This document shows positions 23,365 through 42,315 of a stretch of DNA of 62,340 nt, piece by piece. Positions within the stretch are counted from its first letter, which is position 1. Each line of letters opens with the position of its first letter. Made by a program: the position numbers and the translations under genes. The DNA comes from Candidatus Binatia bacterium. GTDB taxonomy: Bacteria; Desulfobacterota; Binatia; Bin18. Below the pieces are notes generated by a model, which had not been told where the DNA came from, ran no database searches, and worked only from the letters and a program-made list of their open reading frames with translations. The stretch lies in contig CAXXHG010000037.1 of the NCBI GenBank assembly GCA_963666315.2, positions 1-62,340 on the forward strand, read 5' to 3'.

Positions 23365-23618
23365 GATCGTGTCCTTTCCTGCTCCGCCCGGATAATTACT
23401 GTGTGTCACAGTGTGGGCGGGATACCGGAGGAATAACGCACAACCCGTGCCAACCGCTCAGGAATGAGCACGCTCTTTCTGTATTTCAAGTTATTTCAAT
23501 ATGTTACAGCGTCAAAGCACGGTGAAGGTAGGCAGACGGGTCCCCAGCGGTCTCATCCATCGAGACCGTTCTGATATATCGCTTTGATGAGTTATGGCGA
23601 AACGATATGGCCGCTTGA
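23351..23618 (-). promoter_or_regulatory. Sigma54 promoter module, copy 1
   Basis: TTGGCACGGGTTGTGC (GG-N10-GC) at 23438-23453, IHF-like TTTCAATATGTTA, and a 47-bp block (23572-23618) identical to copy 2. Confidence 0.75.
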
Positions 23619-23786
23619 AGTCGCCAATCAGCGCGCCGGTAGGGGTATTTCGATAGTCGTGTGGGGAGCCGGCGGCCTCCACTGCCAAGACGCCCGAGTC
23701 CTCATTGAGGTGCGACTCGCCATGCGTTCTCGCCAGCGGCGAGGCATTATATCAAAGGGCAGAGAAGATACTGTCAACAACGCGTG

Positions 23787-23883
23787 CGGCGATACCCCTC
23801 AATAATCACGGCGAGGAGCACCCCCGCCAAAAAGGCCCCGATCCCGTCGTGCGCGACCAGTGGACCGACCAGCACGGCGTAGA
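23787..23883 (-). pseudogene. 3' remnant of an IPTL-CTERM-extension gene
   Basis: Near-identical to 37016-37113; encodes YAVLVGPLVAHDGIGAFLAGVLLAVIIEGYRR. Confidence 0.8.
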
Positions 23884-24228
23884 TCCTAACCTATCGGTGC
23901 GGACAACTTTCAGCGCAACAATGATTTGCGGTTGATCTACATCGAAAACAGCTATGAACGGAAGAACATCACAGAGAGTTATGAGCGAAACTGGATGAGC
24001 GGCCTGGACGAACTGTGTGACTTCCCGTGTGAGCTAGTGAGCATACTGGTTGTGCAGGACGAACGAGTTGCCGATTTGCATACAGAGGGGTCGTAACCTG
24101 AGAAATGCCGTTTCGCGCTTTTCTGGCTTACCTGTGGTCTGAGTCGTGCTCACGCAGGAGAGCCTGATCATCGGGGGCGAGTAAACCAATAGTTTTTCCC
24201 CAGGGCGGAAGATGAGGCGCGGCCCCCG

Positions 24229-27200: not shown

Positions 27201-27720
27201 CAGTGTCTGCCGGCCCCCCGGGATTAGTGGGAACGACGAATCGCCCCGTTTGAACTCCCCCCGAGTCGAAGAAAACCACCATCGCCCTGCCGGGGGTGCT
27301 GGGCGACCAATTTTTCTGCCCGCTGCCCTGCGCCACCATTTCAAAAAATTGGATACTCGAATCGCCATTCAAGCCGGCCATGAGCTCGTTGATTCGGACA
27401 AAGTGGTTGGTCGCCAGTGCAGGCTGCCAGGAAAAGAGCACAAGGCCGAACGCCACAAGCCACCGAATAGGTCCGGAGACTCGACAAGACAAGGGGCCAC
27501 CGAGAATGTCGGATTTTTTCAGTTTGCTTTCTCCCTTGATTGGCGCGGAGAAAGTCGCCCAATTTTGGTAAAATGCGGGTTTTGTATGGCCGGGGAGACT
27601 TTGCCCCGCTCCATCAATGGATTTCTGAAATTGCGAGCCTCCTGCACGAATATCGGACCTTCCCTGAAAGACTCCGTGGCTGCTTTTAAACAGGCCAAGC
27701 GCCTGCGCAAAATGATACAA
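24229..27720 (-). CDS. Large secreted multidomain di-heme cytochrome c peroxidase/MauG-like protein
   Basis: Signal peptide WLVAFGLVLFSWQPALA, two CxxCH motifs (CGTCH, CGVCH), TAPFFHDNSVATL, ASH/choice-of-anchor-D-like Ig domain; true start probably near 27520. Confidence 0.7.
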   Translation of the reverse strand: MYHFAQALGLFKSSHGVFQGRSDIRAGGSQFQKSIDGAGQSLPGHTKPAFYQNWATFSAPIKGESKLKKSDILGGPLSCRVSGPIRWLVAFGLVLFSWQPALATNHFVRINELMAGLNGDSSIQFFEMVAQGSGQKNWSPSTPGRAMVVFFDSGGVQTGRFVVPTNPGGPADTVLFATQAFADLTDITPDFIIPAGVMPIAGKVCFKNNPDSSGAFNVNLCLSYGGAGFTGATEEASGSPFASDLLIMNSQSLSRNANFSFGSGTNTNANFALAVPTPNSTQNNPSGVETNTVGEAVLPVASSMADQGDDLFFKERFLGNGRTCGTCHFMSNDFGLTPAKVATLPATDLLFMNTVNVNTLVVNSAGSVNPGAGSGTTQPSDFFLGTTITGTMGGTATVLAGTGTTYHILGGSALNVSGNVISDAAGNTGTLVSFTAGNLVGPNPVNVEPRGIEDTAFMTGGRALITENINGFPETTFMRMSPNLLNLKHTAPYGLSGEFADLQAFAKGAVQQHFPRHLQRVGTLLPVAANDFRLPTTAELDAMAAFMDTIFLPSDENFDEGNNFNKFVTTEAQKRGRALFFGTAKCGVCHSGNVLATSDGQFGTTVGVNEEFNTGVANLPINTSDGLPTEQDLGFAANSREFSTRPLFGVKNTAPFFHDNSVATLLGAIQFYDTAQFVNSPAGVQVGDILDVSSSQKVQDIQAFLEGLVELPFTFTRTLNLGNQAVDDGATSAMTVTLTHTGTESLAIGSRTLTGTDPGEFATGSPMVDSGPFSNGQSRTIAVTFDPSSSGPKQATLELRIQSSSDSWDMGVALSGFALACDVAVVPADLVLANQTMSGTQVFRSESAMTFGPTMTVPSGTAITLRSRTIRLEAGVSIQLGATFTANTDPDPCESAMDTVRRQDREFVFAAGAAGDGVSNALRNANGVPASGVGGPISGSPNKAGDDPLLDGTHTFLLIDEDSIDHATPPNFFSELDVNADMAEIGLRERLLFFADHTGETLTLHTGAVGDEGWFALKTIPASWAAVGRTGEGLRNYLNADPGLGTPDRHGNPEALLAQIPDITPLRATGLRLLAGKQVCAVVYDRDVQVTYAPLTGSLQGATLGIVAFEILAVTESTASSPAALPQVEIQLLDADRLCAKELALFLDAPEPSSSSEPFDVMP

Positions 27721-27779
27721 GCAAACGGAATAGACCTTCAGAAAGTACGCATGACACGGCCTCGTTCTGCGTTCTGTTG

Positions 27780-28051
27780 TGTGTAACTCTGCATGATCGT
27801 GTCCTTTCCTCTTGTACCACCCGGTAGATTACTGTGTGCCACAGCGTTTGCGGGTTACCCGAGGAGTAGAGCACGACCCGTGCCAACCGCTCAGAGCAGA
27901 TCAGAGTCTTTCTAAATTTCTTCTTATTTCCATATGTTAGAGCATAGACGCACGGTGAAGGTAGGCAGGCGTGGCCCCTTCAGCCCCCTCCACAAAGACC
28001 GTTGTGATATATCGCTTTGATGAGTTATGGCGAAACGATATGGCCGCTTGA
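27780..28051 (-). promoter_or_regulatory. Sigma54 promoter module, copy 2
   Basis: TTGGCACGGGTCGTGC at 27871-27886; same RBS/ATG context; 47-bp identical block at 28005-28051. Confidence 0.75.
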
Positions 28052-28206: not shown

Positions 28207-28809
28207 ATGGAAGATCAAGACCGCAACTCGTTTGAGCCGTATGACGAACACCATCGCTGCCAAGCGTTGGCGAAGCAGAGGAGAAAGCAATGTGGCCGCG
28301 CTGCCGCGATTGGCAAGCGAACTTGCAAATTTCACGGTGGTGCGAGTCTCGTGGGGCCGGACCATCCCCGCTACACGGGCAAGAGCCGCTACTTGTCTAA
28401 ATATCTGCCGCGCCGCCTGGAACAGCGTCTGGTGGAGGCGCAACAACAGCCGGATCTGGCCACACTGCGGAAGGAACTGGGGTTGCTTGATCTTCGGCTC
28501 AACGATCTGCTGCAACGGCTAGGGCCGGACACGCCGGAGACCGTTCGGGAGGCGATCTGGCCCGAGGTGTACGGACTCGTCCATCTCAAAGCAAAGACGG
28601 TAGATGTCTACGCCCGCAAAGCCAAAATATATGAGCAATTCTTCACGCTGAGTGAGGTATCGGCAGTCGTACAAGGGTTGGTCGCAGTGATTGAGCGATT
28701 GCCATTGGAGCCCGAGGAGCGGGCGCGTGCCTTTCATCAATGCCGGGCGGTCATCGATTTCCATGCGAAAACGTATCACGCCGACCAAGCGCCGGGGTCG
28801 CTTACCTAA
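28207..28809 (+). CDS. HGGxSTG-domain protein (mobile-element associated)
   Basis: RCQALAKQRRKQCGRAAAIGKRTCKFHGGAS Cys/His motif followed by a helical region. Confidence 0.65.
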   Translation: MEDQDRNSFEPYDEHHRCQALAKQRRKQCGRAAAIGKRTCKFHGGASLVGPDHPRYTGKSRYLSKYLPRRLEQRLVEAQQQPDLATLRKELGLLDLRLNDLLQRLGPDTPETVREAIWPEVYGLVHLKAKTVDVYARKAKIYEQFFTLSEVSAVVQGLVAVIERLPLEPEERARAFHQCRAVIDFHAKTYHADQAPGSLT

Positions 28810-29196
28810 GGACGTAGCATTGCGAGATGCGCATGCGGGCAGGCATTTTTTCAAATATATCAAACAGGCATCGAGCAGCGTTAGTGAACCCATATCTTCG
28901 TAGTTTGTGACAGCATGAAGCGACGGCCATCCTCAAACGCGCAGGTCGAGCAGAACCAGGAGGGGGACGAAATGCTTCGGCAACATGACCTGGGTGCGGA
29001 GGAAAGCTGCTGCGCGGTGCGCTTATACCCGTTTCCCCGCTGGTGCCTTGCTCGTTCCAATCCGAAGGAGGTCTCTGACTTTCACAAATCACCTCATGAG
29101 AATCCCTGGCATTACTGCCTCCGGCAGGACCGGTCTGACGGGCCGCAGATAACCTTAGTCATCGCGCCTTCACCGTGAAAATATGTTGATGACACA

Positions 29197-29331
29197 CTAA
29201 TCTATAAAGAAATGATAAATTAGTAATCCAATTAGGATCCCTTTAATAAAAGATATCCAAGCGATTCCATAATAGGAAATTCCAAGCGTTTTCTTCCACC
29301 AGTCTACGTATTTTTTGTGCCAATTAAGCAT
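29197..29331 (-). CDS. 44-aa AT-rich small membrane protein (not in ORF track)
   Basis: MLNWHKKYVDWWKKTLGISYYGIAWISFIKGILIGLLIYHFFID; markedly low GC. Confidence 0.6.
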   Translation of the reverse strand: MLNWHKKYVDWWKKTLGISYYGIAWISFIKGILIGLLIYHFFID

Positions 29332-29354
29332 CTTAACTTCTCTTGTTTCTAAGT

Positions 29355-29510
29355 TTAAAAACTATCATCCTTATACCAACTCCCAGTCTTTGTATCCCAC
29401 ATAGCCTGTCCTCCCACTGCCGGAAAGTGATATCGCCCACTCTCGCTGATCATCCAGGCGCTCGCCATTAAAGCGACGGACAGAATGACCGTACAGAGAA
29501 TATTGTTCAT
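29355..29510 (-). CDS. 51-aa small protein with hydrophobic N-terminus (not in ORF track)
   Basis: AGGGAG RBS; MNNILCTVILSVALMASAWMISESGRY...WDTKTG. Confidence 0.45.
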   Translation of the reverse strand: MNNILCTVILSVALMASAWMISESGRYHFPAVGGQAMWDTKTGSWYKDDSF

Positions 29511-29721
29511 ACACACTCCCTTTACGAAGCGCTGACCTTCGTGCTTAGCGCTGTTTCCGGCTGATTATCAATGGACTAGCTAGCATGGGTACTCACCTCT
29601 TGAACAAGGTGTCACTGCATCTGACACCGATGACACCCTTAGCCACGTTTCTTCCACCTGCCAATCCCCATTGGCCGGGTAGGTGTCACCCCCCATGACA
29701 CCTATGACATCTAGGCCCTCA

Positions 29722-31465
29722 TTATTCCGCCTTTCTATTGCCTCTGATGAGGTAGTTTTTCGGCTTCCTAGTCTCTGGATTCGTCCGCCTCTCACGCACC
29801 AATATGTGTTGCCTTTCAGCCTTTTCGATGGCTCGGCGGGCTGTCGCCTCTGCCACCGAGAAGCGGGCCACAATGTCCGCTTTCGTCTTTTCCAGCCATG
29901 CGCCATCAGACCCCAGCATCTCCCAAATTTCTTTGGGCGTGACGCTGGCTTCGATATCAACAGGCGTGAAGATGTACGAGTCTTGTCTTCGCTCTAGGGT
30001 GAGGCTCCATATCGTCCCGCCATAGTTAGCTTTGTCCAAGTCCAGCTTGAATCGTTCAACCCCGTTATCGCCACCTTGCTGCGGCTTGAGGCGTAGCATT
30101 GTTCGGCACCAATCCCGGATGGCCGATGCTCCTCTGGGTGCCGCACTATTAGATTCCGCTACTTTGGGCTCATGGTGGGCGATAATAAATGTGCAGCCCG
30201 TCTCCGCTTGATACGGGGTGAACAGATCAAGCACCTCACGCATGGCAGAATTTGAGTTCTCGTCCTGGTCATGCGAGCTCACTAAAGGGTCAAGTATCGC
30301 CACGGTTGCTTGATGCTGCCGAAAAGCGTCGAAAAGCGCCGTTCTCCGTGCTTCGTCGGTCAGCATGAGGATAGAGTCAGGCGCTTCGAGAAAAGCGATG
30401 CGGTCAGCGATCTCGTCTCCGTAGCCGAGCGCCCGCATTTGCTTGACCCACCGAAATCTCACCTCACTGAGAGGATCTTCCGCCATGTAGACGACTACTC
30501 GTTGCGGGCCAGCAACAGCAAGTCCGGCATACCCCAATAGAGGCCTACCCGCTAACAGGTCGCACGCAATCTGGAGAAGAAGCGTACTCTTCCCACGTCC
30601 GCCCATCCCGGTCAGCAGCACTTTCCCGCATTCCCCACCCTGGGACGATTGGAGCTGGACGCTCGATTGTGGCTGACTGCAGTTCCGTGCCCGTCCACAA
30701 TCTAACCCGTGGATATGGGGACGAGAGTTCTTCGACATCGAGGGCGCGAAACGCCTCAACGTCGTACGCGTCAAGATAATCATCCAGTCCACACTTCGCC
30801 CCTTTCAGCTCCGGTAAGTTGATGGAAAAGACGACGCGTGCTCCGCGGCTGTACAGTTCCTTGGCTAAACCATCCCGTGCAGCCAGAACATTGGGATTTG
30901 TCGCTGTATCTGAGTCAAAACAGATCGAGACCAACCGATCTTGCCAGGGGATTAAATCCAGGTCAGTGATGGGGCCGCTCTTCCCTGTTTGAGAATCCTT
31001 CCCACGCCAACAAGTCACACCACTCAGCCCAACAAGGTTCACCCCCGCCTGATACGCCCACAGCGTCTTGAATTCACCCTCTGTGATGCCGATTACGACC
31101 GACGGATCATTGATCCAGGATTCACACTCTGGTGGATAGTAGACCGCATTCCCAGCCCCTCGTGGTGACAGATACTTGGCTGGTTTACCCTTGATAGTTG
31201 GTGGCGTGTCCGGTCTGACGCGTGTGAGCGACACTGTCTTGTTGAACGGGTCCTGGTAGGGAAGCGCAATGCCAGGGCAGCCGATCGTTCGCCCTAGAGT
31301 ATCGCCCGCCTCGGCTGGAGAGACGCTGAAGAGACGCGCTGCGGCAATCGTCTGATCAGACAGACCTCGATCCTGCAGATGTTTTCTATGGGGTGCGGTC
31401 AACGGATCGTTGATCGTATCGACATGCGCCGGGTCGAAACCCTTGGTGTCTGTGTGTGTTTGCAT
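29722..31465 (-). CDS. DUF3854/TOPRIM primase + AAA_25 helicase fusion (frameshift ~30630)
   Basis: KYLSPRG, ITEGEFK, ICFDSD, GLDDYL; Walker A GMGGRGKST, ILDPL, DENSNS, IIAHH, RGASA split across two ORF-track frames. Confidence 0.85.
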
Positions 31466-31583
31466 AACCCTTTCAGTCGAATAATTCTTCTCGGCGCTTT
31501 GCTGTTCAAGCCAGGCTATGACCACCTCCCGCCGCTACGAACGGTATCGGCCTCCTCTACTATTTCTCTTTGCGCGTGACCGT

Positions 31584-31798
31584 TTAACTTCTTTCTGCAC
31601 GGCTGGGCAGTTGAGCCCGACGCCGGGCCTGTCTGTCCGCTAACCATTGGACCATGTCGTCTTCGTAGAAACGCACGAGCCGTCCAATGTGCTGTTGTGG
31701 ACAGCCTTCAAAGTCCAAAAGCGGACGGCGGCGGGAGTGCAATTAAGGCGCTCCGCCAGTTGGCGATAATTGAGCCGCGGTTTTTCGGATGTGCGCAT
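31584..31798 (-). CDS. Excisionase/AlpA-like HTH protein (one frameshift; not in ORF track)
   Basis: GGAGGA RBS; MRTSEKPRLNYRQLAERLNCTPAAVRFWT / EGCPQQHIGRLVRFYEDDMVQWL. Confidence 0.65.
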
Positions 31799-32021
31799 GA
31801 GTAATCCTCCTTCTCTTCCACATTGGGCTGATCATACTGGATAGCAGCCGTCTTGTACATCACATATAGTTATCTTTCTTATCCTCTTAAAATAGGATTA
31901 TAAATAGGATAAAATATATTCAAGTGAGGGGAAAGACAGGGAGACCCAGAGAGCGGGCGTCGATTGAAGAAAATGAGGACGGCGGCGTGATGAGGAGGTG
32001 GAGGGATGAGGAGGTGGAGGG

Positions 32022-32606
32022 ATGCTGAGAAAACAATCAACTGGGGACCACAGGTTGGCATTTTATGCACAGTTGGCGTCGATGGCGGACCTCACCATGC
32101 TCAAAAAGAAAGAACAGAAAGCCGTGGAAAAAGTGGCCCGTCGCGCCGGGTTTCAGTTCACGCGACTAGAATCGCCAGATCGCCACTGGGAGATTATTCG
32201 CGAATGTCACGCGGACGTGTATAGGACGATTAATACGGTCTTGGATCGGCGGCAGGTATCGCTCAAACCGCTCGCTAAAAAAGAAGAGTCTGATCAGGCG
32301 CTATTAGGAAAAAACTACCGGCTACAACCGGTGCTGGTACATACTTGGGAGAGTCTATGGGCTGAGATTAAAACGGGGCTGTACAAGGTGCTCAAGCAAG
32401 AGGAATTTCCGTTACGACGGTGTCCGCATTGCAAGGCAGGGGTGTTTGTAGCCGGCGGGCGGCGGAAGTATTGCTCGCGAACATGTACGACGCGAGCGGT
32501 GGATTTGCGGCGAAAAGATGATCCGAAACGTCGCGACGATGTGTTGCGCAATATGAGGCATTACCATGCCAAGAAACGAGCAGCGGCTGCCAGGCCGATT
32601 GTTTAG
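32022..32606 (+). CDS. CGNR zinc-finger domain protein
   Basis: LRRCPHCKAGVF...RRKYCSRTC; divergent from xis and upstream of int. Confidence 0.65.
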   Translation: MLRKQSTGDHRLAFYAQLASMADLTMLKKKEQKAVEKVARRAGFQFTRLESPDRHWEIIRECHADVYRTINTVLDRRQVSLKPLAKKEESDQALLGKNYRLQPVLVHTWESLWAEIKTGLYKVLKQEEFPLRRCPHCKAGVFVAGGRRKYCSRTCTTRAVDLRRKDDPKRRDDVLRNMRHYHAKKRAAAARPIV

Positions 32607-32642
32607 ACATCACCTCGCTATGGCATGAAAAGGAGGTACGAT

Positions 32643-33710
32643 ATGCCGAAACTCAGATATGGCTCGGGGGGTGTATATCGACGGGGGCGCATTTGGTGGA
32701 TCACGTACAATGTGGCCAGTAAACAGCGGCGGGAATCCGCGAAGACGACAGACAAAAGTGAGGCGAGCCGCTTGCTCCGGCAGCGGCTCGGTGAGATCGC
32801 GGAAGGACGGTACGTTGAGACAGGGAAGGGCCGGCTCAGTTTTGAGGACTTGGCGAACATGGTTGTGGCTGACTACGAGGTCAAAGGGTTGGCTACTCTT
32901 CGCGAGTTACGGATTCGTGTTGACAAACATCTTCGCCCCTTCTTTGCGGGAAAGTTGGCGCAGGATATTAGTGCAACGGACGTGAGAGTTTTTATAGCGA
33001 AGCGGCAGGCTGCGGGCGCTGCAAATGCTTCTATCAACAGAGAGACAAGCGCTTTGAAGCGGTCATTTAATCTAGCGATTCAGGCAGAGCGTCTCTACAA
33101 AAAACCTTACATGCCCCGATTGCCGGAGAAAAACGTTCGCGAGGGGTTCGTGGAGCGCTGGGAGTATGAGGCGGTGCTGTCGAAAGTGCCGGAATATCTT
33201 CGTCCCCCTATGATGTTCGCCTATTGGACGGGATGGCGGTTGAATAAGGAGGTGTTGGCGCTGGAATGGTCCAACGTCGATTTGGACGAGGGAACAGTAC
33301 GACTCCGGTTCGGGTCAACGAAGAATGGAGATGGGCGGGTGATTTTCCTCCCGGAAGATCTGTATGCAATGCTGGCGCACCAACAGGCAGAACAGCGGCG
33401 GGATTTTCCGGCCTGCAGCCGCGTGTTTCACCGGGACGGTCACCCGATCAAATCGATACGCGGGTCCTGGGAACGGGCTTGCGCAGAAACGGGACTGACG
33501 GGTAAGATTCCGCACGACTTTCGGCGGACGGCGGTACGCAACTTGGTCCGGGCCGGGGTTTCGGAACATGTGGCGCAGACGATGACAGGCCACAAGACCC
33601 GGGACGTGTTTGATCGGTACGACATTGTGAGTGAGGGAGATTTGCGAGAGGCGGCGGTGAGGCTCAACAGGCGGATAAGCCTCAAACCATCACAAAACCA
33701 ATCACAATGA
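32643..33710 (+). CDS. int: Tyrosine integrase (element A)
   Basis: AGGAGG RBS; catalytic TGWR, TKNG, HDFRR, GHKT, DRY; arm-binding-type N-terminus. Confidence 0.93.
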   Translation: MPKLRYGSGGVYRRGRIWWITYNVASKQRRESAKTTDKSEASRLLRQRLGEIAEGRYVETGKGRLSFEDLANMVVADYEVKGLATLRELRIRVDKHLRPFFAGKLAQDISATDVRVFIAKRQAAGAANASINRETSALKRSFNLAIQAERLYKKPYMPRLPEKNVREGFVERWEYEAVLSKVPEYLRPPMMFAYWTGWRLNKEVLALEWSNVDLDEGTVRLRFGSTKNGDGRVIFLPEDLYAMLAHQQAEQRRDFPACSRVFHRDGHPIKSIRGSWERACAETGLTGKIPHDFRRTAVRNLVRAGVSEHVAQTMTGHKTRDVFDRYDIVSEGDLREAAVRLNRRISLKPSQNQSQ

Positions 33711-33760
33711 GCCAAACGGAGGGAGTTGGAACCGTTCTAAGTCATTGATTTCATTACTGT

Positions 33761-33799
33761 GCCGGGATGGCGGAATTGGCAGACGCAGTGGACTCCAAA
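33761..33799 (+). mobile_element. att site: 5' half of tRNA-Leu (A/B junction)
   Basis: 38 of 39 nt identical to 41743-41781; similarity ends at the anticodon loop. Confidence 0.9.
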
Positions 33800-34004
33800 G
33801 GCACTACGAGTGATATAACTAAATGATATACAGAGCTACGGAGTAGGATAGGGCTGTTCTTTCAGCGGATTAGACCAACCGCGACTTACTCCGTAGCACT
33901 CCGTACTTCTCCTTCTCACAGCCAAACGACGGCAAAAACAACGGCGATTTGAGCGGATGCTCTCGGGCCGGCCCCTGACGCAGTTTGGGGGCCCCTCCTC
34001 CCCG

Positions 34005-34110
34005 GGGTGGGGTCGTGTTCGAGGATCCATTTGCAGACGCGCTCGAACTGAGTGCCGCGTACCTTTTTCTCTCTCGAGAAGGTCTGTCGAAATTCTGCGA
34101 AGGTGGCCAT
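34005..34110 (-). pseudogene. N-terminal stub of a restriction endonuclease-helicase-like gene
   Basis: MATFAEFRQTFSREKKVRGTQFERVCKWILEHDP resembles the GxxFE start of Mrr-like nuclease/DEAD helicase fusions. Confidence 0.45.
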
Positions 34111-34237
34111 AGGTGTGTCTGCTGCGCGGTGATATGCAGTAGTCGCAATGTACCCTCACGTACCACAAGTCGGCATAAGAATCACCGATTTCCCTCCGAG
34201 GCCATTGCCCAAACCGTTCTACGTGCGCTAGGACACG

Positions 34238-34681
34238 ATGATGCGATGGTTCTTCACAATATGACTTCTTGTGACTGCCCTCCACTGGAGCCCGGACGCC
34301 AACGCGGACGAGATCGCTGAGCTCCGGGCACGGGCGGAGCAAGGCAACGCCAGGGCCCAGTTCAATCTGGGCAACATGTACAACGGCGGCGACGGGGTTG
34401 TGCAGGATTACAAACAAGCGCTGTTCTGGTACCGCAAAGCCGCCGACCAAGGCAACGCCAGGGCCCAGTTCAATCTGGGCAACATGTACAACGGCGGCGA
34501 CGGGGTCGTGCAGAACTACGTCCAGGCACACAAGTGGTACAACCTGGCCGCGGCAGACTCCACCGGAGAAACGCACGAAAAGGCCGTTCGCAATAGATCC
34601 ATTGTTGAGAAAAAGATGACGCCGCAGCAGGTCGCGGAGGCGCAACGACTTGCCGGGGAATGGAGGGTCCGTCAGCCGTAG
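34238..34681 (+). CDS. SEL1-repeat protein (signal peptide interrupted by TGA at 34262)
   Basis: Two near-identical AEQGNARAQFNLGNMYNGGDGV repeats; KKMTPQQVAEAQRLA tail. Confidence 0.8.
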
Positions 34682-35007
34682 GCCGGAGGAGTCTGGGAAT
34701 GAATGATCTACGCCGTGGTAGGATAACCCTTTAAGGGCGTCCGGCAGAAACGATACTGTCGACCTGCCTGCAGCGCCCGAGCGGACTATCAACGGCATGC
34801 AGCGCAGCGTCGGAAAAATGGCGTCAAACGATACCGCGAGGAGAAGAGTCGCTCGCCCACCTCGTAGTACGGCCATGCGTATGAATATATTCCGCCGCCA
34901 CGTCGACAGTCATCTTGCCCCGAGAAAGCGGTGCAGCGGGTGGGGTGGGCGGTGGTTCTTCTGGTTAGTCAGAATAGTTTGGGAAAATTAGGGAGGAGGG
35001 AAAGCGG

Positions 35008-36513
35008 ATGCTGTCCAGATGGTCTGCTCTACTACTGCTATTTCTACTTGCAAACTCAGGGTGCGGGACGGGACCAGTAACATTATCAGCACAGGCGGAG
35101 GCCAAGGCCAAACGCCACCAACGGTACAAGGCGGATATCAGCCGAAAAGCGCACCTGAAAGTGGTGATGGCGCACGGCGAAAAAAGCCAGGCAGCAGGGC
35201 GGCCCCCGGTTATACAAGGAAAGGAGCCGGGGGAAGTACGACTCGAACCAGGGCTTGTCTCCTCGTCATCCTTGCGCCCTCTCAGCATTAGAGACCGCAC
35301 AAACTCGGTTGTTGTGGATTGCCGGTTGGACAGGACCCTCTCGTTATTACTGACGTACCAGGGAACAAAGCTCTCACTCTCAGGTCGTCGGATTGTCTTT
35401 CAATTTGATAATGGCCCAGAGTATAACAGCACCGGTATGAAACTTCGCCATGAGAAGACGAAGAAATTTGTGGAAGATATGGTCAGTCATCGCACTCTTG
35501 CCTTATGGGTTCCTGGCGACGCTGCGAACCGGGCCAAATTCGACCTACGACCCGTCCGCCAAGACTTACAATCGTTGGTCAATCGGTGCAAAGTACCAGT
35601 CCACGATCCCGAGGGTATGCCCCGTCGCGTCACTATTGCCTCCCGCCGTGCCAACATTCGTACTAGAGCGGACGTGAAGTCGGATGTCCTCGGTCAGGCA
35701 ACGGCGGGCCTGTCGTTTCCCGTGGTCAGCGAAGAGGGAGAATGGCTTAAAATCAATTACGCTGACAAAACTGGATGGGTGCACCTTGCCGTGACAGAAC
35801 GAGGCAAGGAGAGGAATGTGAAGCACCTTCAATTTTCCGTTGACACGTCCGTTACCACCGCGTCACGGAAACCGAACGACGTCGTAGCGTCCAAAGTCGC
35901 CAACACTGTTGGGCCGTCCGACACAGCGAACCCTGATGAACCTGTGTCTGAAACGAGATCCGGAAACCCGACTTCCCGCCGAACCAGAAAGGTCAAGACG
36001 CGAGCTGGCCCGTTTGGTTTGTCCATGGGCATGAAGAAATCTGATATTAGGTCGGAACTCGTAGAGTTCGAACGATACCAATTCAAGACTTCAAGTCTCC
36101 CCAAGACACACCCCGCTTTCAATATTTACGTACTCCAAATCACGCCAAAACGCGGCCTCTGCTATATAAAGGCTGTCGGCAAAACGCTCCAAACAAACCG
36201 TTATGGCGGCTCGCTCCTTCTTAAGTTCAACCAAATGGAAGCGAAGCTCGATTCCGCATATGGTTCGCACGAGCGAATCGATAGGCTCAATTCTGGGAGC
36301 ATCTGGAATGAGGCGGAGGACTGGATGATGGCATTAAAAAAAAGGGAACGGTACCTTTTTACGACATGGACATTAGACGGCGACCTCGCAAAGATTGGCC
36401 TCATTGCGACAGCACTGACCACGGAGTCAGGTTATCTGGCCGTTGAGTACTATTTCCGTTCTCATGATGACTGTGATGCAGAGCGTGACTCTGTTGAGGA
36501 TAGCGTGCTCTGA
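35008..36513 (+). CDS. Putative lipoprotein with SH3b domain and unknown C-terminal domain
   Basis: LLANSGC lipobox; ANIRTRADVKSDVLG...GEWLKI...TGWV SH3_3 pattern. Confidence 0.6.
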   Translation: MLSRWSALLLLFLLANSGCGTGPVTLSAQAEAKAKRHQRYKADISRKAHLKVVMAHGEKSQAAGRPPVIQGKEPGEVRLEPGLVSSSSLRPLSIRDRTNSVVVDCRLDRTLSLLLTYQGTKLSLSGRRIVFQFDNGPEYNSTGMKLRHEKTKKFVEDMVSHRTLALWVPGDAANRAKFDLRPVRQDLQSLVNRCKVPVHDPEGMPRRVTIASRRANIRTRADVKSDVLGQATAGLSFPVVSEEGEWLKINYADKTGWVHLAVTERGKERNVKHLQFSVDTSVTTASRKPNDVVASKVANTVGPSDTANPDEPVSETRSGNPTSRRTRKVKTRAGPFGLSMGMKKSDIRSELVEFERYQFKTSSLPKTHPAFNIYVLQITPKRGLCYIKAVGKTLQTNRYGGSLLLKFNQMEAKLDSAYGSHERIDRLNSGSIWNEAEDWMMALKKRERYLFTTWTLDGDLAKIGLIATALTTESGYLAVEYYFRSHDDCDAERDSVEDSVL

Positions 36514-36542
36514 GTTCTTTTTTCTCCCCCGTAGACGGGCAC

Positions 36543-36854
36543 TCATCCAACCAGCGTCGAAATCTGCAAGTCGACGATGTTGTTGCAGCAAGCAATCCGG
36601 TGCAAATCCATGCCAAATTGGACGGGAAAGGCGTGCTGCGAGGACTCACGTTTCACACACGGTCCGGAAGTTACGCGGTAGATGAAAGTCTGCTCGACGC
36701 CTGCCAACAAGGCGCCTGGGACGAGGGCCCACCGCCCGCGGCTGTGTCGGAAGACGGCCATTACCATTTCATCTTCCGATCTCGAGTAAGCGTCCGAATC
36801 GACGCCACAGACGGCCGAGTTATAAAAACATTCCTCTCGGTAGGCCTGTTGTAG
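36543..36854 (+). pseudogene. TonB C-terminal-like fragment
   Basis: RSGSYAVDESLLDAC...PPP pattern; no clear start. Confidence 0.3.
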
Positions 36855-37008
36855 CACGCTCCTCGAAGACGTTTATTGTATTTGGGGTAGAGCGGGCGTT
36901 CATAGGAGAGGCCTCTGCTCGTCCTATTTGCTGTGAAAGAGATTCAGGGGCAAGACGTTCATTGCTGGAAGGATTTCAGCGCCTGCCGCACCGCACAGAG
37001 GAGTCCCA

Positions 37009-38026
37009 TTATGGCCGGCGATACCCCTCAATAATCACGGCCAGGAGCACCCCCCGCCAAAAAGGCCCCGACCCCGTCGTGCGCCACCAGTGGGCCAACC
37101 AGCACGGCGTAGAACCCGAGGCCAACAGTCGCCGTGACTTGGCCCAGCAGCATCGACGTGAGCCAGGATCCGTGCGAGACCATGACCGTACCCGAGATCC
37201 CGGTGACCATCGCCGGCACGGCTGCGAGCTGCCAGGTCGCGATTGCAAATAAGGACAAAGTCAGGAGAATCATGCCCCACTGGGGAAGCGTCGGAATGGG
37301 GACAGGCCCCGACTGGAACACAAATACCCCTCCGTGCGTCCCGGCATATAGCTTCATTCCACCGGGCGCAACCGCGAAGGCTAAGACTAATGGGTTGGTC
37401 AGGCCAGTGTTCATCTCCGCCCAGGTCGCACCTGCATTGATACTCTTGAACACCCCTCCTTGCGTCCCAGCATACAGGATATCGGAATGAGCCGGATCCA
37501 TGGCGAACGAGCGGACGATGAGGTTGGTCAGGCCGGTGTTCATCGCCGTCCACGTCGCACCTGCATTCGTAGTCTTGAACACGCCTTCTCCGCCAAGCGT
37601 GCCGGCGTACACGGTGTCAGGGTTGGTCAGAGCAATGGCTAGGGATTCGGCTGAGAAGCCGTTCACCTGTGCCCAGGTCGTGCCCATATTCATACTTTTG
37701 AACACACCCAAATTTCCCCCGGCGTACAGGGTCGTAGAATTGGTCGGGTCGATAGCCAGGGAGTCGATGTCTCTAGGATTGGTCAGGCCGGTGTTCATCG
37801 CCGTCCAGGTCGTGCCCATGTTCGTACTCTTGAACACGCCTCCTTCAAAGGTCCCGGCATACACGATGTCAGGGTCGGTGGGATCCACGGCTACGGCCTG
37901 GATGAATGGAACTGCGGGGCCATTCGTCGTCCATGCATTCAGGCCCGCGTAGGCAGGCGGGGTACGCATAAAGACGGAGACCAGGACAAGCACCACGCAT
38001 CCGCACCACACAGCCATGGACGGCAA
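37009..38026 (-). CDS. BNR/beta-propeller secreted protein with IPTL-CTERM signal and extra TM extension (frameshift ~37050)
   Basis: Repeated YAGT..GGVFKS.N.G.TW; PIPTLPQWGMILLTLSL; C6 here vs C5 in the 23.8-kb copy restores FLAGVLLAVIIEGYRRP. Confidence 0.8.
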
Positions 38027-38306
38027 GTCAGCCGGCCCTGCAGCTGCGTGGGCAACACAGCCTGTGGCATAAAAATATCCATCGCCAGTTCCTCTCGATT
38101 CTCCCAGGAGCGAAGGTCCGCAAATACTCGCATGGGTGCCACCTTTGACGAGACGGAATACCCCTTGTGTCTCATAGTGCCTAGCGCGAGTGTTGATACA
38201 TAAAGAGAAACACCACGCATCCGGGCTGTGACTGGTCTACCAGTCAGGGTAGCCAGGGCTATCCTCCACTACTAACTTTACGACCTGCGTGGTGAGCCCC
38301 GGCTGT

Positions 38307-38873
38307 TCACTGAGCGCGCCGTATGGCCTCCCGCAGTAACCGGGTCAGGCTCGGGTTGTCGTAAGTGATGTTCTGCGCAATCTTTCGCATCGACGCGGAG
38401 AGCCGCCGGTAGCCCCAGAGGCTACGTCGCAGGGTTTCTTCCCACCCTTCTCGTTGATAGTACAGCGGCAGATTGACCTTAAAATAGGAGATACTGTCGG
38501 CATCCTTGAGCAGATCAGAACGCGGGTCGCCCCCAATCTCATGTAGGCGGACCAAGCGACATGCTTCGTCCGCAATCGGCAGGGCGACGGCGCACCGCTC
38601 GAGGATCGCCTGTAGCATCTGCGCCCCATGCTGCGCGTGCGCAGCCTTGAATGCCTCATAGTCCCCATAGTCGGCACGCCGCACTTTTTGGGCCTCAACC
38701 GCGCGGTCAATGTCATGGGCAAGGGCGGCAAGTTGTATCGCCTGGTCCGCCTGGGGGGCAAGCGTGCGCAGCCACGCAAGCGTATCTTCAGCGTGGCGAG
38801 GATCTTCCGGCACCCGCGAACCGGCCACAATCTCCCGGATTCTCTGTTTTGCAGCCGCTACGCTAGCCATCAT
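38307..38873 (-). CDS. HD-superfamily / DUF4202-like hydrolase
   Basis: DPRHAEDT, LAALAHDIDR, AAHAQHGA, LVRLHE, LLKDADSISYF; overlaps the DIPPS stop. Confidence 0.65.
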   Translation of the reverse strand: MMASVAAAKQRIREIVAGSRVPEDPRHAEDTLAWLRTLAPQADQAIQLAALAHDIDRAVEAQKVRRADYGDYEAFKAAHAQHGAQMLQAILERCAVALPIADEACRLVRLHEIGGDPRSDLLKDADSISYFKVNLPLYYQREGWEETLRRSLWGYRRLSASMRKIAQNITYDNPSLTRLLREAIRRAQ

Positions 38874-40182
38874 GTCGGCAGACAATAAGGCGACGGATGG
38901 TTTCAAGATTCATAAGAACGGCAATCACTCCTAAAACCAGACACACTTGGTTACAGATAGCCGCCAGGAAGATGAGAAAGACCCGCACGTCACGGCCCAG
39001 GCGAAAGCCCCGGCCACGGCTGATCTGGGTGGCCATGAGATGATCGTATTTGTCCGCCGTATAACTCACCATAAACGATCCGATGATGGCCAAAAACCCA
39101 ATCACAAGGACGAGGCCCTGCGGGGTGTCTGCATACGCATACCAAGTCAGACCGAACAGCAGAAAAGCGTCGGCATACCGGTCGAGGACTGCATCCAGCC
39201 AGCCCCCGTAAGTGCTGCTCTGGAACGTGAGCCGCGCCACTTCGCCGTCCGACCCGTCGATAATAGACGCAAACTGGGCCAGCACCCCTCCCGCCACAAG
39301 GGTCGCATAGCTCCCGAGAACAAACAGGCCGGCCGCCAGGACGGAACACCCAAACGAAAACACAGAGATGTGATTGGGGGTAATGGCATACTGCACCAGC
39401 CGACGAGACAACCGTATGGACAGGGGACGGTTCACATACCGCGCCACCGGGCCGTCGTTGGGCTTATCCCGCAGCTAGGCTAAGAGGGCGCGTTCCGCTT
39501 TGCCAAAGGCAACCGGATCATCCACGTCTATCCAGAACCCTCGGATGGGCACTGCCGTGGCTTTCCCCCGGGCGGCCAGCACCTGCACGGCGGCGGAGAG
39601 CGTCGCGTTTCCGTTCTGCTCGATACACGTGGTCAGTGCGCCAAAAATGGCGGGCGTACACACGAAAATGCCGGTGTCGAAGCCGTTGAAGTCGGAGAGT
39701 CCCTTGCCGATCTGCGTGATCCGGCTCCCGTCCGTCTTGACCCGGGTCACATCGGCCATATCGATGAGAGGATTGTGGAGGTCGACGTCCACGCCCAAGG
39801 CAATTGCGTCCTTCTCGAGGGACACGTGCATCAACGCCTGCGCACCGGCGGGGTCAAAGACATGATCCGCCATAAGCAGGAGAAACGGTTCGGTGAGATA
39901 CCCGTCCGCTTTCAGGACGGAGAGTCCGTTTTCTTTTTCCCATTCGTCATTCAGCAGCACCGTCATCCGAATCGCCAGCCGCTGTGCGAAGCGCGTGAGA
40001 AACGTGCGCAGCCGATCCCCCTGGTAGCCGATGACCACATAGAAGTCATCCGCGCCCGCCTCTCGGGCGGCGCGGATGACGCGTTCGATCAGGGGGACGC
40101 CTAAGAGGGGCACGAGGGGTTTGCTGTCGCCCTGGTGTCGGAGTCGGCGGCCCTGGCCGGCCGCAATGATCAGACACTGCAT
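38863..40182 (-). CDS. Bifunctional inositol-1-phosphate cytidylyltransferase / CDP-alcohol phosphotransferase (IPCT/DIPPS-like), in-frame TAG at 39475-39477
   Basis: IIAAGQGRRL, ENGLSVL, LLMADH, WIDVDD; reads RALLA*LRDKPNDGPVARYVNR; DGSDGEVAR...GGWLDAVLDRYAD. Confidence 0.85.
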
Positions 40183-40186
40183 CGGG

Positions 40187-41278
40187 TCAGGAGCGCTGGA
40201 TGAAGGCTTCGAGCATCTGAAAGGCCTCGTCATCGGTGAACTGCTGGGGGGGATGTTTGCAAAAATAGGCGGAGGGGGCCTCTAGGATGCCCCCCTGCCG
40301 GCGGTTCAAGGCCAGTTTGACACACCGGATCGCGTCTATGGCGACCCCGGCGGAGTTGGGGGAATCCTCCACGGAGAGGCGCAGTTCTATGTTCATATCG
40401 ACCCCGCCGAAGAGCTTGCCTTCCATGCGCAGAAAACACACTTTGTTGTCTTTCTGCCACGGCACGAAATCGCTCGGCCCGATATGAATGTTTTCATCCG
40501 CCAACCGGGTAGCCGACACGGATTGCACCGCCTCGGTCTTGGACACTTTCTTCGAGGCCAGCCGGCGGTGATTGAGCATGTTCAGAAAATCCGTGTTGCC
40601 GCCCGTATTGAGTTGGTAGGTGCGCTCCAGTTTCACCCCGCGCTTCTTGAACAGATCGGTCAGGACCCGGTGGGTGATCGTCGCCCCCAACTGCGCCTTG
40701 ATGTCGTCCCCGATCAGAGGCAGCTTGCGCTCCGCAAACCGCTGCGCCCAGAGCGGGTCGCTGGCGATGAAGACCGGCATATTATTGATAAACGCGACGC
40801 CGGCCTGGAGCGCGCATTCGGCATAGAACCGCGTCGCCTCTTCCGAGCCCACGGGTAAATAATTCAGCAGCATGTCCGCGCCGGAGTCTTTGATGATCTT
40901 GACCACGGCCGCGGCGCTGGGTTCCGCCTGGTCGGCCACGACGAAGGTGTATTTATCGTCATACTCGTGCATATGGGGAGACACTCCATCCAGAATCTTC
41001 CCCATCTGGACCGTGACCCCCGCCGGCGGCAGATCGGCACAGAAGACGGTCGTACAGTTCGGCGGGGCAAAGATCGCCGCATGGACGTCTTGCCCCACTT
41101 TGCGCCGGTCGATATCAAAGGCCGCGACGACGCTGATATCGCCGGGCTGATAGCCCCCGATGTCCCAGTGCATCAGGCCGACGACGTCCTGGGGTTGCTC
41201 CCGGTAGTACTCGATGCCCTGCAGGAGGGAACTGACGCAGTTCCCCACTCCGACAATCGCGATCTTGATTCCGCTCAT
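40187..41278 (-). CDS. ino1: myo-Inositol-1(3)-phosphate synthase
   Basis: GVGNC, NYLPVGS, GDDIKAQLGATITHR, YQLNTGGNTDFLNM, VEDSPNSAG. Confidence 0.95.
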   Translation of the reverse strand: MSGIKIAIVGVGNCVSSLLQGIEYYREQPQDVVGLMHWDIGGYQPGDISVVAAFDIDRRKVGQDVHAAIFAPPNCTTVFCADLPPAGVTVQMGKILDGVSPHMHEYDDKYTFVVADQAEPSAAAVVKIIKDSGADMLLNYLPVGSEEATRFYAECALQAGVAFINNMPVFIASDPLWAQRFAERKLPLIGDDIKAQLGATITHRVLTDLFKKRGVKLERTYQLNTGGNTDFLNMLNHRRLASKKVSKTEAVQSVSATRLADENIHIGPSDFVPWQKDNKVCFLRMEGKLFGGVDMNIELRLSVEDSPNSAGVAIDAIRCVKLALNRRQGGILEAPSAYFCKHPPQQFTDDEAFQMLEAFIQRS

Positions 41279-41433
41279 TGCGTGCTCCTTACTCTTCATG
41301 GAAAGACGGGCGCCCCGGCGAGCCGAACACTGTCTCGGCGGCAGGTTGCCTAGTCCTCACTGCGTGGCGGCGGACGTTCTCATCCGCCCGCCAGAACTGA
41401 TCGAACAGGAGCGTAGACGAGTGGCCGGGTGCT

Positions 41434-41730
41434 AATATTCGTTGGTCTTGGGACCGGGCTTGCGAGGAGGCCGGTCTAGTCGGTAAGATTCCGCACGACT
41501 TTCGGCGGACGGCGGTACGCAACTTGGTCCGGGCCGGGGTTTCGGAACATGTGGCGCAGAGGATGACAGGCCATAAGACACGAGCGGTGTTTGATCGGTA
41601 CGACATCGTGAGTGAGGGGGATTTGCGAGAGGCCGCGGTGAAGCTTAACGCCCGGATAAACGCTCAAACGACGGCAAGAACAACGGCAATGGGCCAAACA
41701 GAGGGAGTTGGAACCGCTCTAAGTCATTGA
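41434..41730 (+). pseudogene. 3' remnant of element B integrase
   Basis: Highly similar to 33455-33750 (KIPHDFRRTAVRNLVRAGVSEHVAQ.MTGHKTR.VFDRYDIV). Confidence 0.9.
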
Positions 41731-41742
41731 TTTCATTACTGT

Positions 41743-41826
41743 GCCGGGATGGCGGAATTGGCAGACGCAGTGGACTCAAAATCCACCGGTGGAAACACTG
41801 TGCGAGTTCGAGTCTCGCTCCCGGCA
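41743..41826 (+). tRNA. tRNA-Leu(CAA)
   Basis: GCCGGGA/TCCCGGC acceptor stem, GTGGA-CTCAAAA-TCCAC anticodon arm, long variable arm, GCGAGTTCGAGTCTCGC T arm; no encoded CCA. Confidence 0.95.
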
Positions 41827-42315
41827 TATTTCCTTTCTTTTGATCGGCGTAGGCACTAAAGGTTTTGGCGCTCTACAGACTTAGTACGGGTGAGGCTATG
41901 GGCAGGGCGCTTCCATCCTCCTCTCCACCCCCCTGCTCATGGTCTCCCCCTTTTCCCCAACACTTAAAGAATGCAGACAGGCATACCGAATCTTGCTTGA
42001 GGGAGAAGTCGGTTGGATTAAACCTATGGATGACGGTACGGCAGTCGGCATCAATATTGCCAACCGTAAACAACGCCAGGAATGAGTCGAACTCGTGTTT
42101 CACCTTCAACACCGACGCTCCCGCCGGCCTAAAGATTATCTGACCGCCATATCCGCCATATCTGTATAGATCTCAGGACTCTGTCTCTTGTCCCTCTTGC
42201 TCATCACATGGGACCAAAAGGAGAGCAGGCGCGGGTGAGGGTTGTCTCTCAGCCGGATTTGCTGTAGGCAAAAAGCCAGCTTTTTGGCAGTTTTGTGCTG
42301 ATTTGAGGATACATC

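Follow-up and report, generated by a model that had tools for sequence, protein, structure and literature searches.

Two tyrosine-integrase islands stacked at a tRNA-Leu(CAA) gene of a Binatia bacterium probably entered it from the 5' side

The DNA analysed here is the entire contig C37 (62,340 bp; the window) of a Candidatus Binatia bacterium assembly with 47 contigs, 4.99 Mb and 92% completeness (G000; other G numbers denote related genomes, L numbers related loci). Two islands, A and B, lie in tandem upstream of its tRNA-Leu(CAA) gene, and each has rebuilt the front half of that gene, not the back half as is usual. We consider it likely that this stack of two tyrosine-integrase islands entered tRNA-Leu(CAA) from the 5' side, island A first, and that the tRNA promoter now lies inside the integrase gene.

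ARAGORN reported a single tRNA gene in the window, the intact tRNA-Leu(CAA) at 41742-41827 (plus strand); out of 50 tRNA genes in the whole assembly it alone has this anticodon. We assign its 5' half to element B and its 3' half to the host. The tRNA-Leu(CAA) 5' half of element A is located at 33760-33799 (plus strand); nt 1-36 are identical, followed by a mismatch at 33796 and then AAA. A 35-nt string of the 5' half occurred in exactly two places, 33761-33795 and 41743-41777, and had no match in 100 shuffles. Both are parts of a direct repeat (33456-33804 and 41437-41786; 87-88% identity, offset 7,981-7,982 bp) which comprises the last ~85 integrase codons, a spacer and the tRNA as far as the anticodon loop. 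The gene for integrase A (32625-33710, plus strand) is intact and codes for a tyrosine recombinase of 361 aa with the catalytic motifs TGWR, HDFRR and RY in its translation and matches to Pfam Phage_integrase (PF00589, E 1.1e-16), Phage_int_SAM_1 and the PHROG 1 integrase (E 4.6e-51). Its stop codon is separated from the tRNA 5' half by 50 nt. At the second copy a 3' remnant of integrase B with its spacer (41430-41741, plus strand; open, ~95 codons) corresponds to residues 271-356 of integrase A at 78-80% identity (tblastn). It is co-oriented with the intact tRNA-Leu gene and adjoins it, its end lying 45-70 nt before 41742. An integration host factor (IHF) consensus, WATCAANNNNTTR, was used for a motif search and gave three matches in the window, two of them inside the two spacers (33738-33750, minus strand; 41720-41732). 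An earlier note on this DNA had described an intact integrase followed by an IHF-like box and the tRNA-Leu 5' half and, ~8 kb downstream, a related integrase 3' remnant with the same spacer and the complete tRNA-Leu(CAA). All of these were confirmed, the offset being 7,982 bp.

Related genomes supplied the corresponding far ends. Two sister genomes, G024 (contig C51) and G020 (contig C17), contain nt 1-43 of tRNA-Leu in degenerate or intact form behind a different flank, which carries a good TTGCCA-N17-TAAAAT promoter. Six further members of the genus have this same native flank, and no integrase sequence, in front of an intact tRNA. The displaced 5' halves are followed by a stretch of ~170 nt homologous to window positions 33800-33950. 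Judged by this order of host promoter, host 5' half and element left arm, the two sites are attL. Five aligned junction sequences all diverge directly after CTCAAAA of the anticodon loop. This indicated that the anticodon loop is the overlap region and the anticodon stem the flanking dyad, i.e. the junctions belong to the anticodon-loop sublocation class, in which identity ends within the loop between the arms of the stem dyad. The earlier proposal of an attP with the tRNA 5' half and crossover in the anticodon loop was thus borne out for this integrase clade.

The ends of the elements can be told apart by paired 7-nt repeats. The last codons of integrase A contain an A-type pair, ATCACAA-N5-ATCACAA (33689-33707, plus strand), a candidate arm-type site that recurs in the left arms of the G024 and G020 attL sites about 125 nt from the core. 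The end of the integrase B remnant carries a B-type pair, ACGGCAA-N5-ACGGCAA (41671-41689), and the left arm of element B (33800-33950, plus strand), which is homologous to the sequence after the displaced 5' halves and to a junction in G003 (contig C40), carries ACGGCAA-N5-ACGGCGA at 33929-33947. The matching B-type repeats indicated that the left arm following A's 5' half is of B type and cognate with the remnant at the tRNA. B therefore has two matching ends, as expected of one inserted element. Its displaced tRNA 5' fragment is located upstream in the same orientation (33760-33799), and positions 33796-33800 read as a hybrid att site. A's host-derived 5' fragment is absent from this assembly and present in G024 and G020 at the attL sites described above.

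An integration model can be drawn from these junctions. The attP would consist of the last integrase codons with the paired 7-nt arm-type repeats, a ~50-nt spacer with the IHF-type box, the tRNA 5' half, the anticodon loop as overlap and a ~170-nt left arm with the same paired repeats. Recombination would strand the host promoter and the host 5' half at the far end of the island and would join the element's 5' half to the host's 3' half. Two further islands of the same genome have the same design, with an integrase, whole or as a remnant, beside the tRNA gene and a 5' fragment with native promoter at the opposite end of the island: the tRNA-Arg(CCT) island on contig C43 (fragment 386281-386321, gene at 397737, 11.4 kb) and the tRNA-Ser(TGA) island on C24 (fragment 113159-113202, gene at 117586, 4.4 kb). 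A tRNA-Arg(ACG) island on C22 was considered as another example and dropped, its upstream fragment being a tRNA-Arg(TCG)-like 5' half.

Two other att-related arrangements were observed. At the G020 site (L061, 37-14684) a unit of 6,706 bp, which takes in the displaced 5' half of tRNA-Leu together with the left arm, occurs in tandem as two or more identical copies, either an amplification of the attL-bearing unit or an assembly effect. An internal piece of tRNA-Leu(CAA), nt 14-43, is present on C38 (107429-107471) and in G009 (contig C567; L063, 2602-2644), bordered on either side by conserved sequence other than tRNA. An integrase and 3' fragments of tRNA-Thr and tRNA-Ala are found nearby. The piece may be the relic of an att site, or else an attP by which the gene is not restored.

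The earlier note had called for an empty site in a relative. Such a site, precise for B, was present in G024. There a block on contig C53 (9298-9624), 97.9% identical to the A copy (33473-33799) and 87.8% identical to the B copy, runs into the tRNA 3' half and a methylmalonyl-CoA mutase gene. G024 thus represents the B-empty state, an A-type 5' half being joined to the tRNA 3' half with nothing in between, and compared with it B (33800-41781) is inserted precisely. The G024 island consists of attL, a BNR gene, a 92.5%-identical copy of a 1163-aa gene also found in the window, 6 kb of other DNA and an A-type integrase remnant. The tandem junction itself, integrase remnant, spacer, 5' half and left arm, recurs in G003 (C40), a more distant, independent member of the genus. 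A search of genome contigs with integrase A returned a single locus, L069, which is the G024 contig. A segmental duplication of the integrase-end/tRNA region, not site-specific and followed by divergence without a second integration, would also leave a ~340-bp direct repeat around 8 kb. Yet the end of the repeat is not arbitrary but falls in the anticodon loop, and behind it comes the left arm that marks attL sites in other genomes. In addition, the arm motifs assign the two copies to different element types, and the G024 copy is 98% A-type. A mere duplication is hardly credible.

In which order did the elements arrive? The earlier note had B insert into the attR of A and so build an array. 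The tandem is real, the att site hybrid and G024 devoid of B; the order B after A is just the more parsimonious one. An A-type remnant at the G024 tRNA and shared cargo at about host-level identity imply that A most simply predates the split of G000 and G024, which suggests that B arrived after A. Island A with integrase, primase-helicase, an excisionase-like gene (xis), an HGGxSTG gene and probably the 1163-aa gene, common to G024, would have come first. Element B would next have entered the A-rebuilt tRNA and displaced A 8 kb upstream. In the opposite order B would have occupied the tRNA first and A would later have recombined with B's attL, i.e. with the displaced 5' half and left arm. The resulting map is the same, so that the map alone cannot separate the two, and an intact integrase A next to a remnant of integrase B makes A look younger at face value. 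However, in G024 both the remnant adjoining the tRNA and the left arm at attL are A-type, and the cargo gene of A is present (92.5% aa identity). Furthermore, the truncation of integrase B coincides with the end of a repeat nearly identical to contig C21 (see below); it is therefore recent and silent on the arrival of B. We consider the opposite order unlikely. By sequence comparison B has kept both cognate ends and lost all but ~95 integrase codons, apparently when an inositol-phosphate operon became attached to it very recently.

Is the 5' polarity a property of the integrase family? The relatives search covered 41 genomes and yielded 19 loci besides the query. An integrase or remnant is located co-oriented just upstream of a tRNA in nine of the 19 (Thr, Arg twice, Cys, Lys, Leu-taa, Leu-caa twice, Thr). 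Four of the 19 are convergent with a tRNA 3' end and six have no tRNA, mostly at contig ends. Within the genus 5' polarity therefore holds for 9 of 13 loci with a tRNA. Of 401 genomes sampled evenly across the phylum, 33 had a match at E 1e-40 or better, and these added 27 loci: 21 convergent in the classic 3' manner, two co-oriented and four without tRNA, so that 3' polarity accounts for 21 of the 23 with a tRNA. Homologues flanked by tRNA 3' ends had been named beforehand as speaking against the 5' proposal; they are the rule among distant homologues and not in the close clade. In a quick maximum-likelihood tree of 32 integrases, integrase A, its C24 paralogue and a G009 homologue form one 5'-type group (SH-aLRT, i.e. 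approximate likelihood-ratio support, 90) nested among 3'-type genes. The 5' label requires four changes, at least two of which are forced by well-supported branches. Tree placement and counts together indicated that 5' polarity is a repeated switch inside an anticodon-loop integrase family, not a family-wide property. Thus, one integrase family is able to flip polarity. Relatives of an independent 5'-type integrase, L093, were found in 4 of 61 genomes (G109 itself and three more), and all these integrases were already in the phylum set.

Classic 3' islands were encountered as well. The tRNA-Leu(CAA) of G021 (L064; contig C1, 3352398-3360241) has a 3'-side island of ~7.7 kb with a 3' fragment (nt 30-86) beside the mutase gene. 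The source assembly contains many classic 3' fragments of tRNA-Thr(CGT) and tRNA-Ala (GGC, CGC) that start at nt 27-42 (contigs C7, C19, C22, C32, C38 and C40). Anticodon-loop islands of both polarities thus coexist in this genome. On C22 (83715-83802) ARAGORN reported an 88-nt tRNA-like gene with a two-base anticodon, 93% identical to C19 51759-51846; the C22 gene shares its 3' part with tRNA-Ala(GGC) and is probably a hybrid att relic.

A tRNA rebuilt in this way is cut off from its native promoter, and most likely a sigma-70-type promoter within the 3' coding region of the integrase gene (TTGCnn-N18-TAAGAT) drives it instead. The promoter-like TTGCGC-N18-TAAGAT is located at 33479-33508 (plus strand) in codons A-C ... 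G-K-I of integrase A, just before HDFRRT, and TTGCGA-N18-TAAGAT at 41460-41489 (plus strand) in the integrase B remnant. We read the hexamers at fixed codon positions upstream of HDFRRT in 10 5'-type and 21 3'-type genes. Two 3'-type genes, one 5'-type gene and the 5'-type remnant L017, which was measured separately, were left out as they had no motif match. Nine of the ten 5'-type genes have a second hexamer of the form TAnnnT and reach 7-8 of 12, the tenth (L011) being probably mis-anchored by the motif search, whereas none of the 21 3'-type genes exceeds 6. The second hexamer begins at a third-codon position, which is occupied by T in 9 of 10 5'-type versus 2 of 21 3'-type genes. The pseudogenised remnant L017 reaches 10 of 12 (TTGCCA/TAAAAT), and the phylogenetically separate 5'-type genes L079 and L093 have TTGCAA/TAAATT and TTGCAG/TAGACT at the same position. 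All 11 C-terminal integrase remnants among the relatives begin between residues 246 and 278. Three independent truncations, the A-type remnant of G024, B and a scar of ten genus genomes, have their ends at most 25 nt upstream of the CGGGCTTGC...GGTAAGATTCCGCAC block. The ten scar genomes have lost ~200 nt downstream of the block; apart from the block itself, only the final ~22 nt of the spacer are left. The scar block reads TTGCCA-N18-TAAGAT, and a promoter consensus scan called the site in G001. An integrase-embedded tRNA promoter is likely but unproven; it would account for the fact that every integrase remnant retains the sequence from the promoter onwards. The decayed tRNA-Ser(TGA) island on C24 has a near-consensus TTGCCT-N18-TAATAT (117540-117585) directly upstream of the rebuilt tRNA.

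More tentatively, and a little short of an even chance in our judgement, each switch from 3' to 5' may have involved acquisition of a sigma-70 promoter within conserved codons of the catalytic domain (Ala-Cys ... Gly-Lys-Ile just before HxxR, synonymous third positions fixed as T) independently in at least three lineages. Once the element has decayed, the host would keep and sharpen the fragment, and at least 10 of the 27 other genus genomes would run tRNA-Leu(CAA) on it.

Several points weigh against this account of stack and promoter. The promoter consensus scan called no promoter in either window copy, and the embedded hexamers score only 7-8 of 12. Hexamer conservation within the genus clade could in part reflect shared ancestry and coding constraint. 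Convergence is backed by two further lineages only (L079 and L093) in a quick tree of modest support, and three distant 5'-type integrases of this genome (C22, C15 and, beside tRNA-SeC, C43) do not have the motif at that position. The integration of A itself cannot be reconstructed here because the window and the assembly contain no third tRNA-Leu 5' half and no A-type left arm. Finally, the evidence is at contig level, in an assembly of 47 contigs. The last 1,420 bp before the integrase B remnant (40010-41429) are an inverted match to C21 202649-204068 in all but two bases (41419 and 41421, within the last 11 bases of the repeat), and the integrase B breakpoint falls exactly on the end of this repeat, so contigs C37 and C21 may be joined differently. 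G009 supports linkage of the C21 flank to the operon, with the synthase gene in C21 context, and not the junction of integrase remnant and operon. Either a very recent duplication or translocation moved host-side DNA into B, or the contigs were cross-joined at the repeat.

Could the array as a whole be an assembly artefact, the junction of A and B or the join between B's interior and the integrase remnant having been misjoined from strain variants or repeats of a metagenome-derived assembly, in a genome with a single island? The fragmented, 92% complete assembly would allow it, the near-identical 1,420-bp repeat that links C37 and C21 permits another pairing of the four flanks, and G009 has the C21 flank beside the synthase gene. 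The A and B copies, however, differ at 12% of positions and have different arm motifs; they would not collapse or cross-join over 340 bp. The A/B junction type recurs in the independent genome G003, and the left arm and the remnant of B share B-type repeats. Both the cognate ends of B and the junction in G003 speak for a real array, and an artefact is quite unlikely.

We now turn to the genes of element A. Upstream of integrase A an ORF (open reading frame) for a Cys-rich protein of 194 aa (32022-32606, plus strand; from the ORF listing) is CGNR-like by eye and had no significant family match in Pfam, PHROG and NCBIfam profile searches. An excisionase-like helix-turn-helix gene (31584-31798, minus strand) is broken by a 1-nt deletion. 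The missing base is apparent against a 93%-identical copy in G020 (contig C103), an intact ORF of 71 aa; the N-terminal piece gave only weak helix-turn-helix matches. The primase-helicase (29722-31525, minus strand) is split into two ORFs with matches to DUF3854 (30545-31525; Pfam E 8.6e-14) and AAA_25 (29722-30792; E 9.1e-23), which overlap by 248 nt in different frames. In the relatives L107 (537 aa) and L110 (442 aa) both domains are in one fused ORF; probably A's primase-helicase is a single gene broken by a frameshift. An HGGxSTG-like gene (28207-28809, plus strand) matches NCBIfam NF041373 below cut-off (E 2e-4), and partial copies of it are present inside the C24 tRNA-Ser and C43 tRNA-Arg islands. 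Pfam and PHROG gave no match to a structural protein in 28.0-33.8 kb. The gene content listed in the earlier note therefore held for DUF3854, AAA_25 and the lack of structural-protein matches; HGGxSTG is weak, and the names 'CGNR' and 'xis' are thinly based.

The same note had likened the elements to satellites of the PICI (phage-inducible chromosomal island) type, which a helper phage would package. A is indeed small and has an integrase, an xis-like gene and a primase-helicase without detectable structural genes. But no packaging, capsid-size-redirecting or repressor gene was detected in 28.0-33.8 kb or in B with Pfam, PHROG and NCBIfam (no terS, cpm/ppi-like or repressor match, with some small ORFs left without matches). 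A's helicase is ~30% identical alike to phage primase/helicases and to IncQ-type plasmid RepA helicases, B is without replication or regulatory genes, and the xis and primase-helicase genes of A are broken. The satellite label is unsupported and the relationship very unlikely.

Left of these genes, a gene for a di-haem MauG/peroxidase-like secreted protein of 1163 aa (24229-27720, minus strand; NCBIfam/Pfam) is probable cargo of A. As its 92.5%-identical homologue is inside the G024 island, between attL and the A-type integrase remnant, island A probably also includes this gene and starts left of 28207. A 100-bp 3'-end fragment of a BNR/IPTL-CTERM gene (23787-23886, minus strand) is a copy of 37016-37116 (direct repeats, 89-92% identity). 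G024 has a full BNR gene at the corresponding place, between attL and the 1163-aa gene; the fragment probably marks a breakpoint in the truncated left part of A. A host tRNA 5' half marking A's attL, which the earlier note expected upstream, was searched for and found neither in the window nor elsewhere in the assembly. Alignment of 23560-23900 with the attL sites gave no homology. The host flank that precedes attL in G024 is located on contig C17 of the source assembly, and left-side synteny with G024 ends at about 20.6 kb. By these comparisons A has lost attL through rearrangement and has two frameshifted genes, and both elements are evidently decaying. A repeated region of ~285 bp at 27767-28051 has relatives at 23337-23618 and on C46, C19 and C43. 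The ~285-350-bp copies (the second extending over 23337-23722; C46 107.8 kb, C19 43.2 kb, C43 387.3 kb) are 80-97% identical, precede secreted-protein genes (S8 peptidase, the 1163-aa di-haem protein) and are found inside other tRNA-linked islands too. The region looks like a shared promoter or leader module.

Element B is an integrase-less shell. Behind its left arm are island-type genes (33836-38026) for a 346-aa protein (minus strand), an SH3-domain protein (plus), a 104-aa ORF (minus) and a BNR/IPTL-CTERM protein (minus). Homologues of the 346-aa and 104-aa proteins adjoin other tRNA-linked sites in the same genome. The 346-aa gene contains a 108-bp tandem duplication (34334-34549) and the BNR gene internal repeats of 123-132 bp (37374-37844). 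The inositol-phosphate operon (38028-41429, minus strand) codes for an HD phosphohydrolase, a CDP-alcohol transferase, a cytidylyltransferase and an inositol-3-phosphate synthase, the last with a gene in only 3 of 28 genus genomes. Cytidylyltransferase and CDP-alcohol transferase match the two halves of the Thermococcales bifunctional IPCT/DIPP synthase model, and the operon (genes at 38307-41299, minus strand) is a candidate di-myo-inositol-phosphate pathway.

These data provide a well-dissected case of bacterial 5'-side tRNA integration with both att arms, co-varying candidate arm repeats, an empty site and a tandem junction in two genomes. If true, the embedded promoter would answer how the rebuilt tRNA is expressed, and it would outlive the element as a permanent scar; throughout a genus, an essential host gene present in one copy would have had its expression permanently rewired by a mobile element. 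For annotation, old 5'-side insertions are marked by short 3' remnants of integrase genes ahead of tRNA genes; island finders that expect 3' fragments will miss them. Full-text literature searches for an integrase-embedded tRNA promoter returned nothing, although the primes in the search phrases may have defeated matching.

Integration on the 5' side of tRNA genes has been described before but is uncommon (Zhao and Williams, 2002; Islander). In a 2019 study of thaumarchaeal elements recombination with the 5'-distal part of tRNA genes is called 'considerably less frequent', with reference to Zhao and Williams (2002) and four archaeal studies (PMC6563490). The configuration filter of Islander accepts an upstream 5' fragment (PMC4383910). 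According to a 2021 review bacterial tRNAs retain their own promoter 'with very few exceptions', and archaeal integrases of the pTN3 type recombine with the 5' half, after which the integrase promoter drives the tRNA, a situation 'seldomly encountered in bacteria' (PMC8371274). What we add is the anatomy of the att sites, the finding that polarity switches inside one family, and comparisons that speak for a tRNA promoter embedded in the integrase gene.

As far as described there, the islands studied here share with reverse-orientation islands (Zhao and Williams, 2002, J Bacteriol 184:859; PMC4383910) the integrase beside the regenerated tRNA gene, a co-oriented 5' tDNA fragment, displaced or duplicated, on the upstream side, and tandem arrays in which each unit has its own fragment. 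They differ in that one family uses both polarities, 3' mostly in the phylum and 5' mostly in the genus, and in that the candidate tRNA promoter is within conserved integrase codons. The pTN3-type integrases of Thermococcales (Cossu, 2017; Krupovic and Bamford, 2008, via PMC8371274) similarly have the tRNA 5' half as attB, that of tRNA-Leu for pTN3; the rebuilt tRNA is no longer on its own promoter, and integrase-linked chromosomal rearrangements are reported (PMC8371274). Compared by description, those are archaeal 'suicidal' enzymes of the SSV type which split their own gene, whereas ours is bacterial, non-split and lambda-type. There the integrase promoter is said to drive the tRNA. Here as few as ~85-110 integrase codons are sufficient, and such short remnants point to an internal promoter. 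With the anticodon-loop, symmetric sublocation class of Williams (2002, NAR 30:866, via PMC8371274) our islands have in common that identity ends in the 7-nt loop with the anticodon-stem dyad flanking it; unlike in that class, the element carries the 5' side of the tRNA and not the 3' side.

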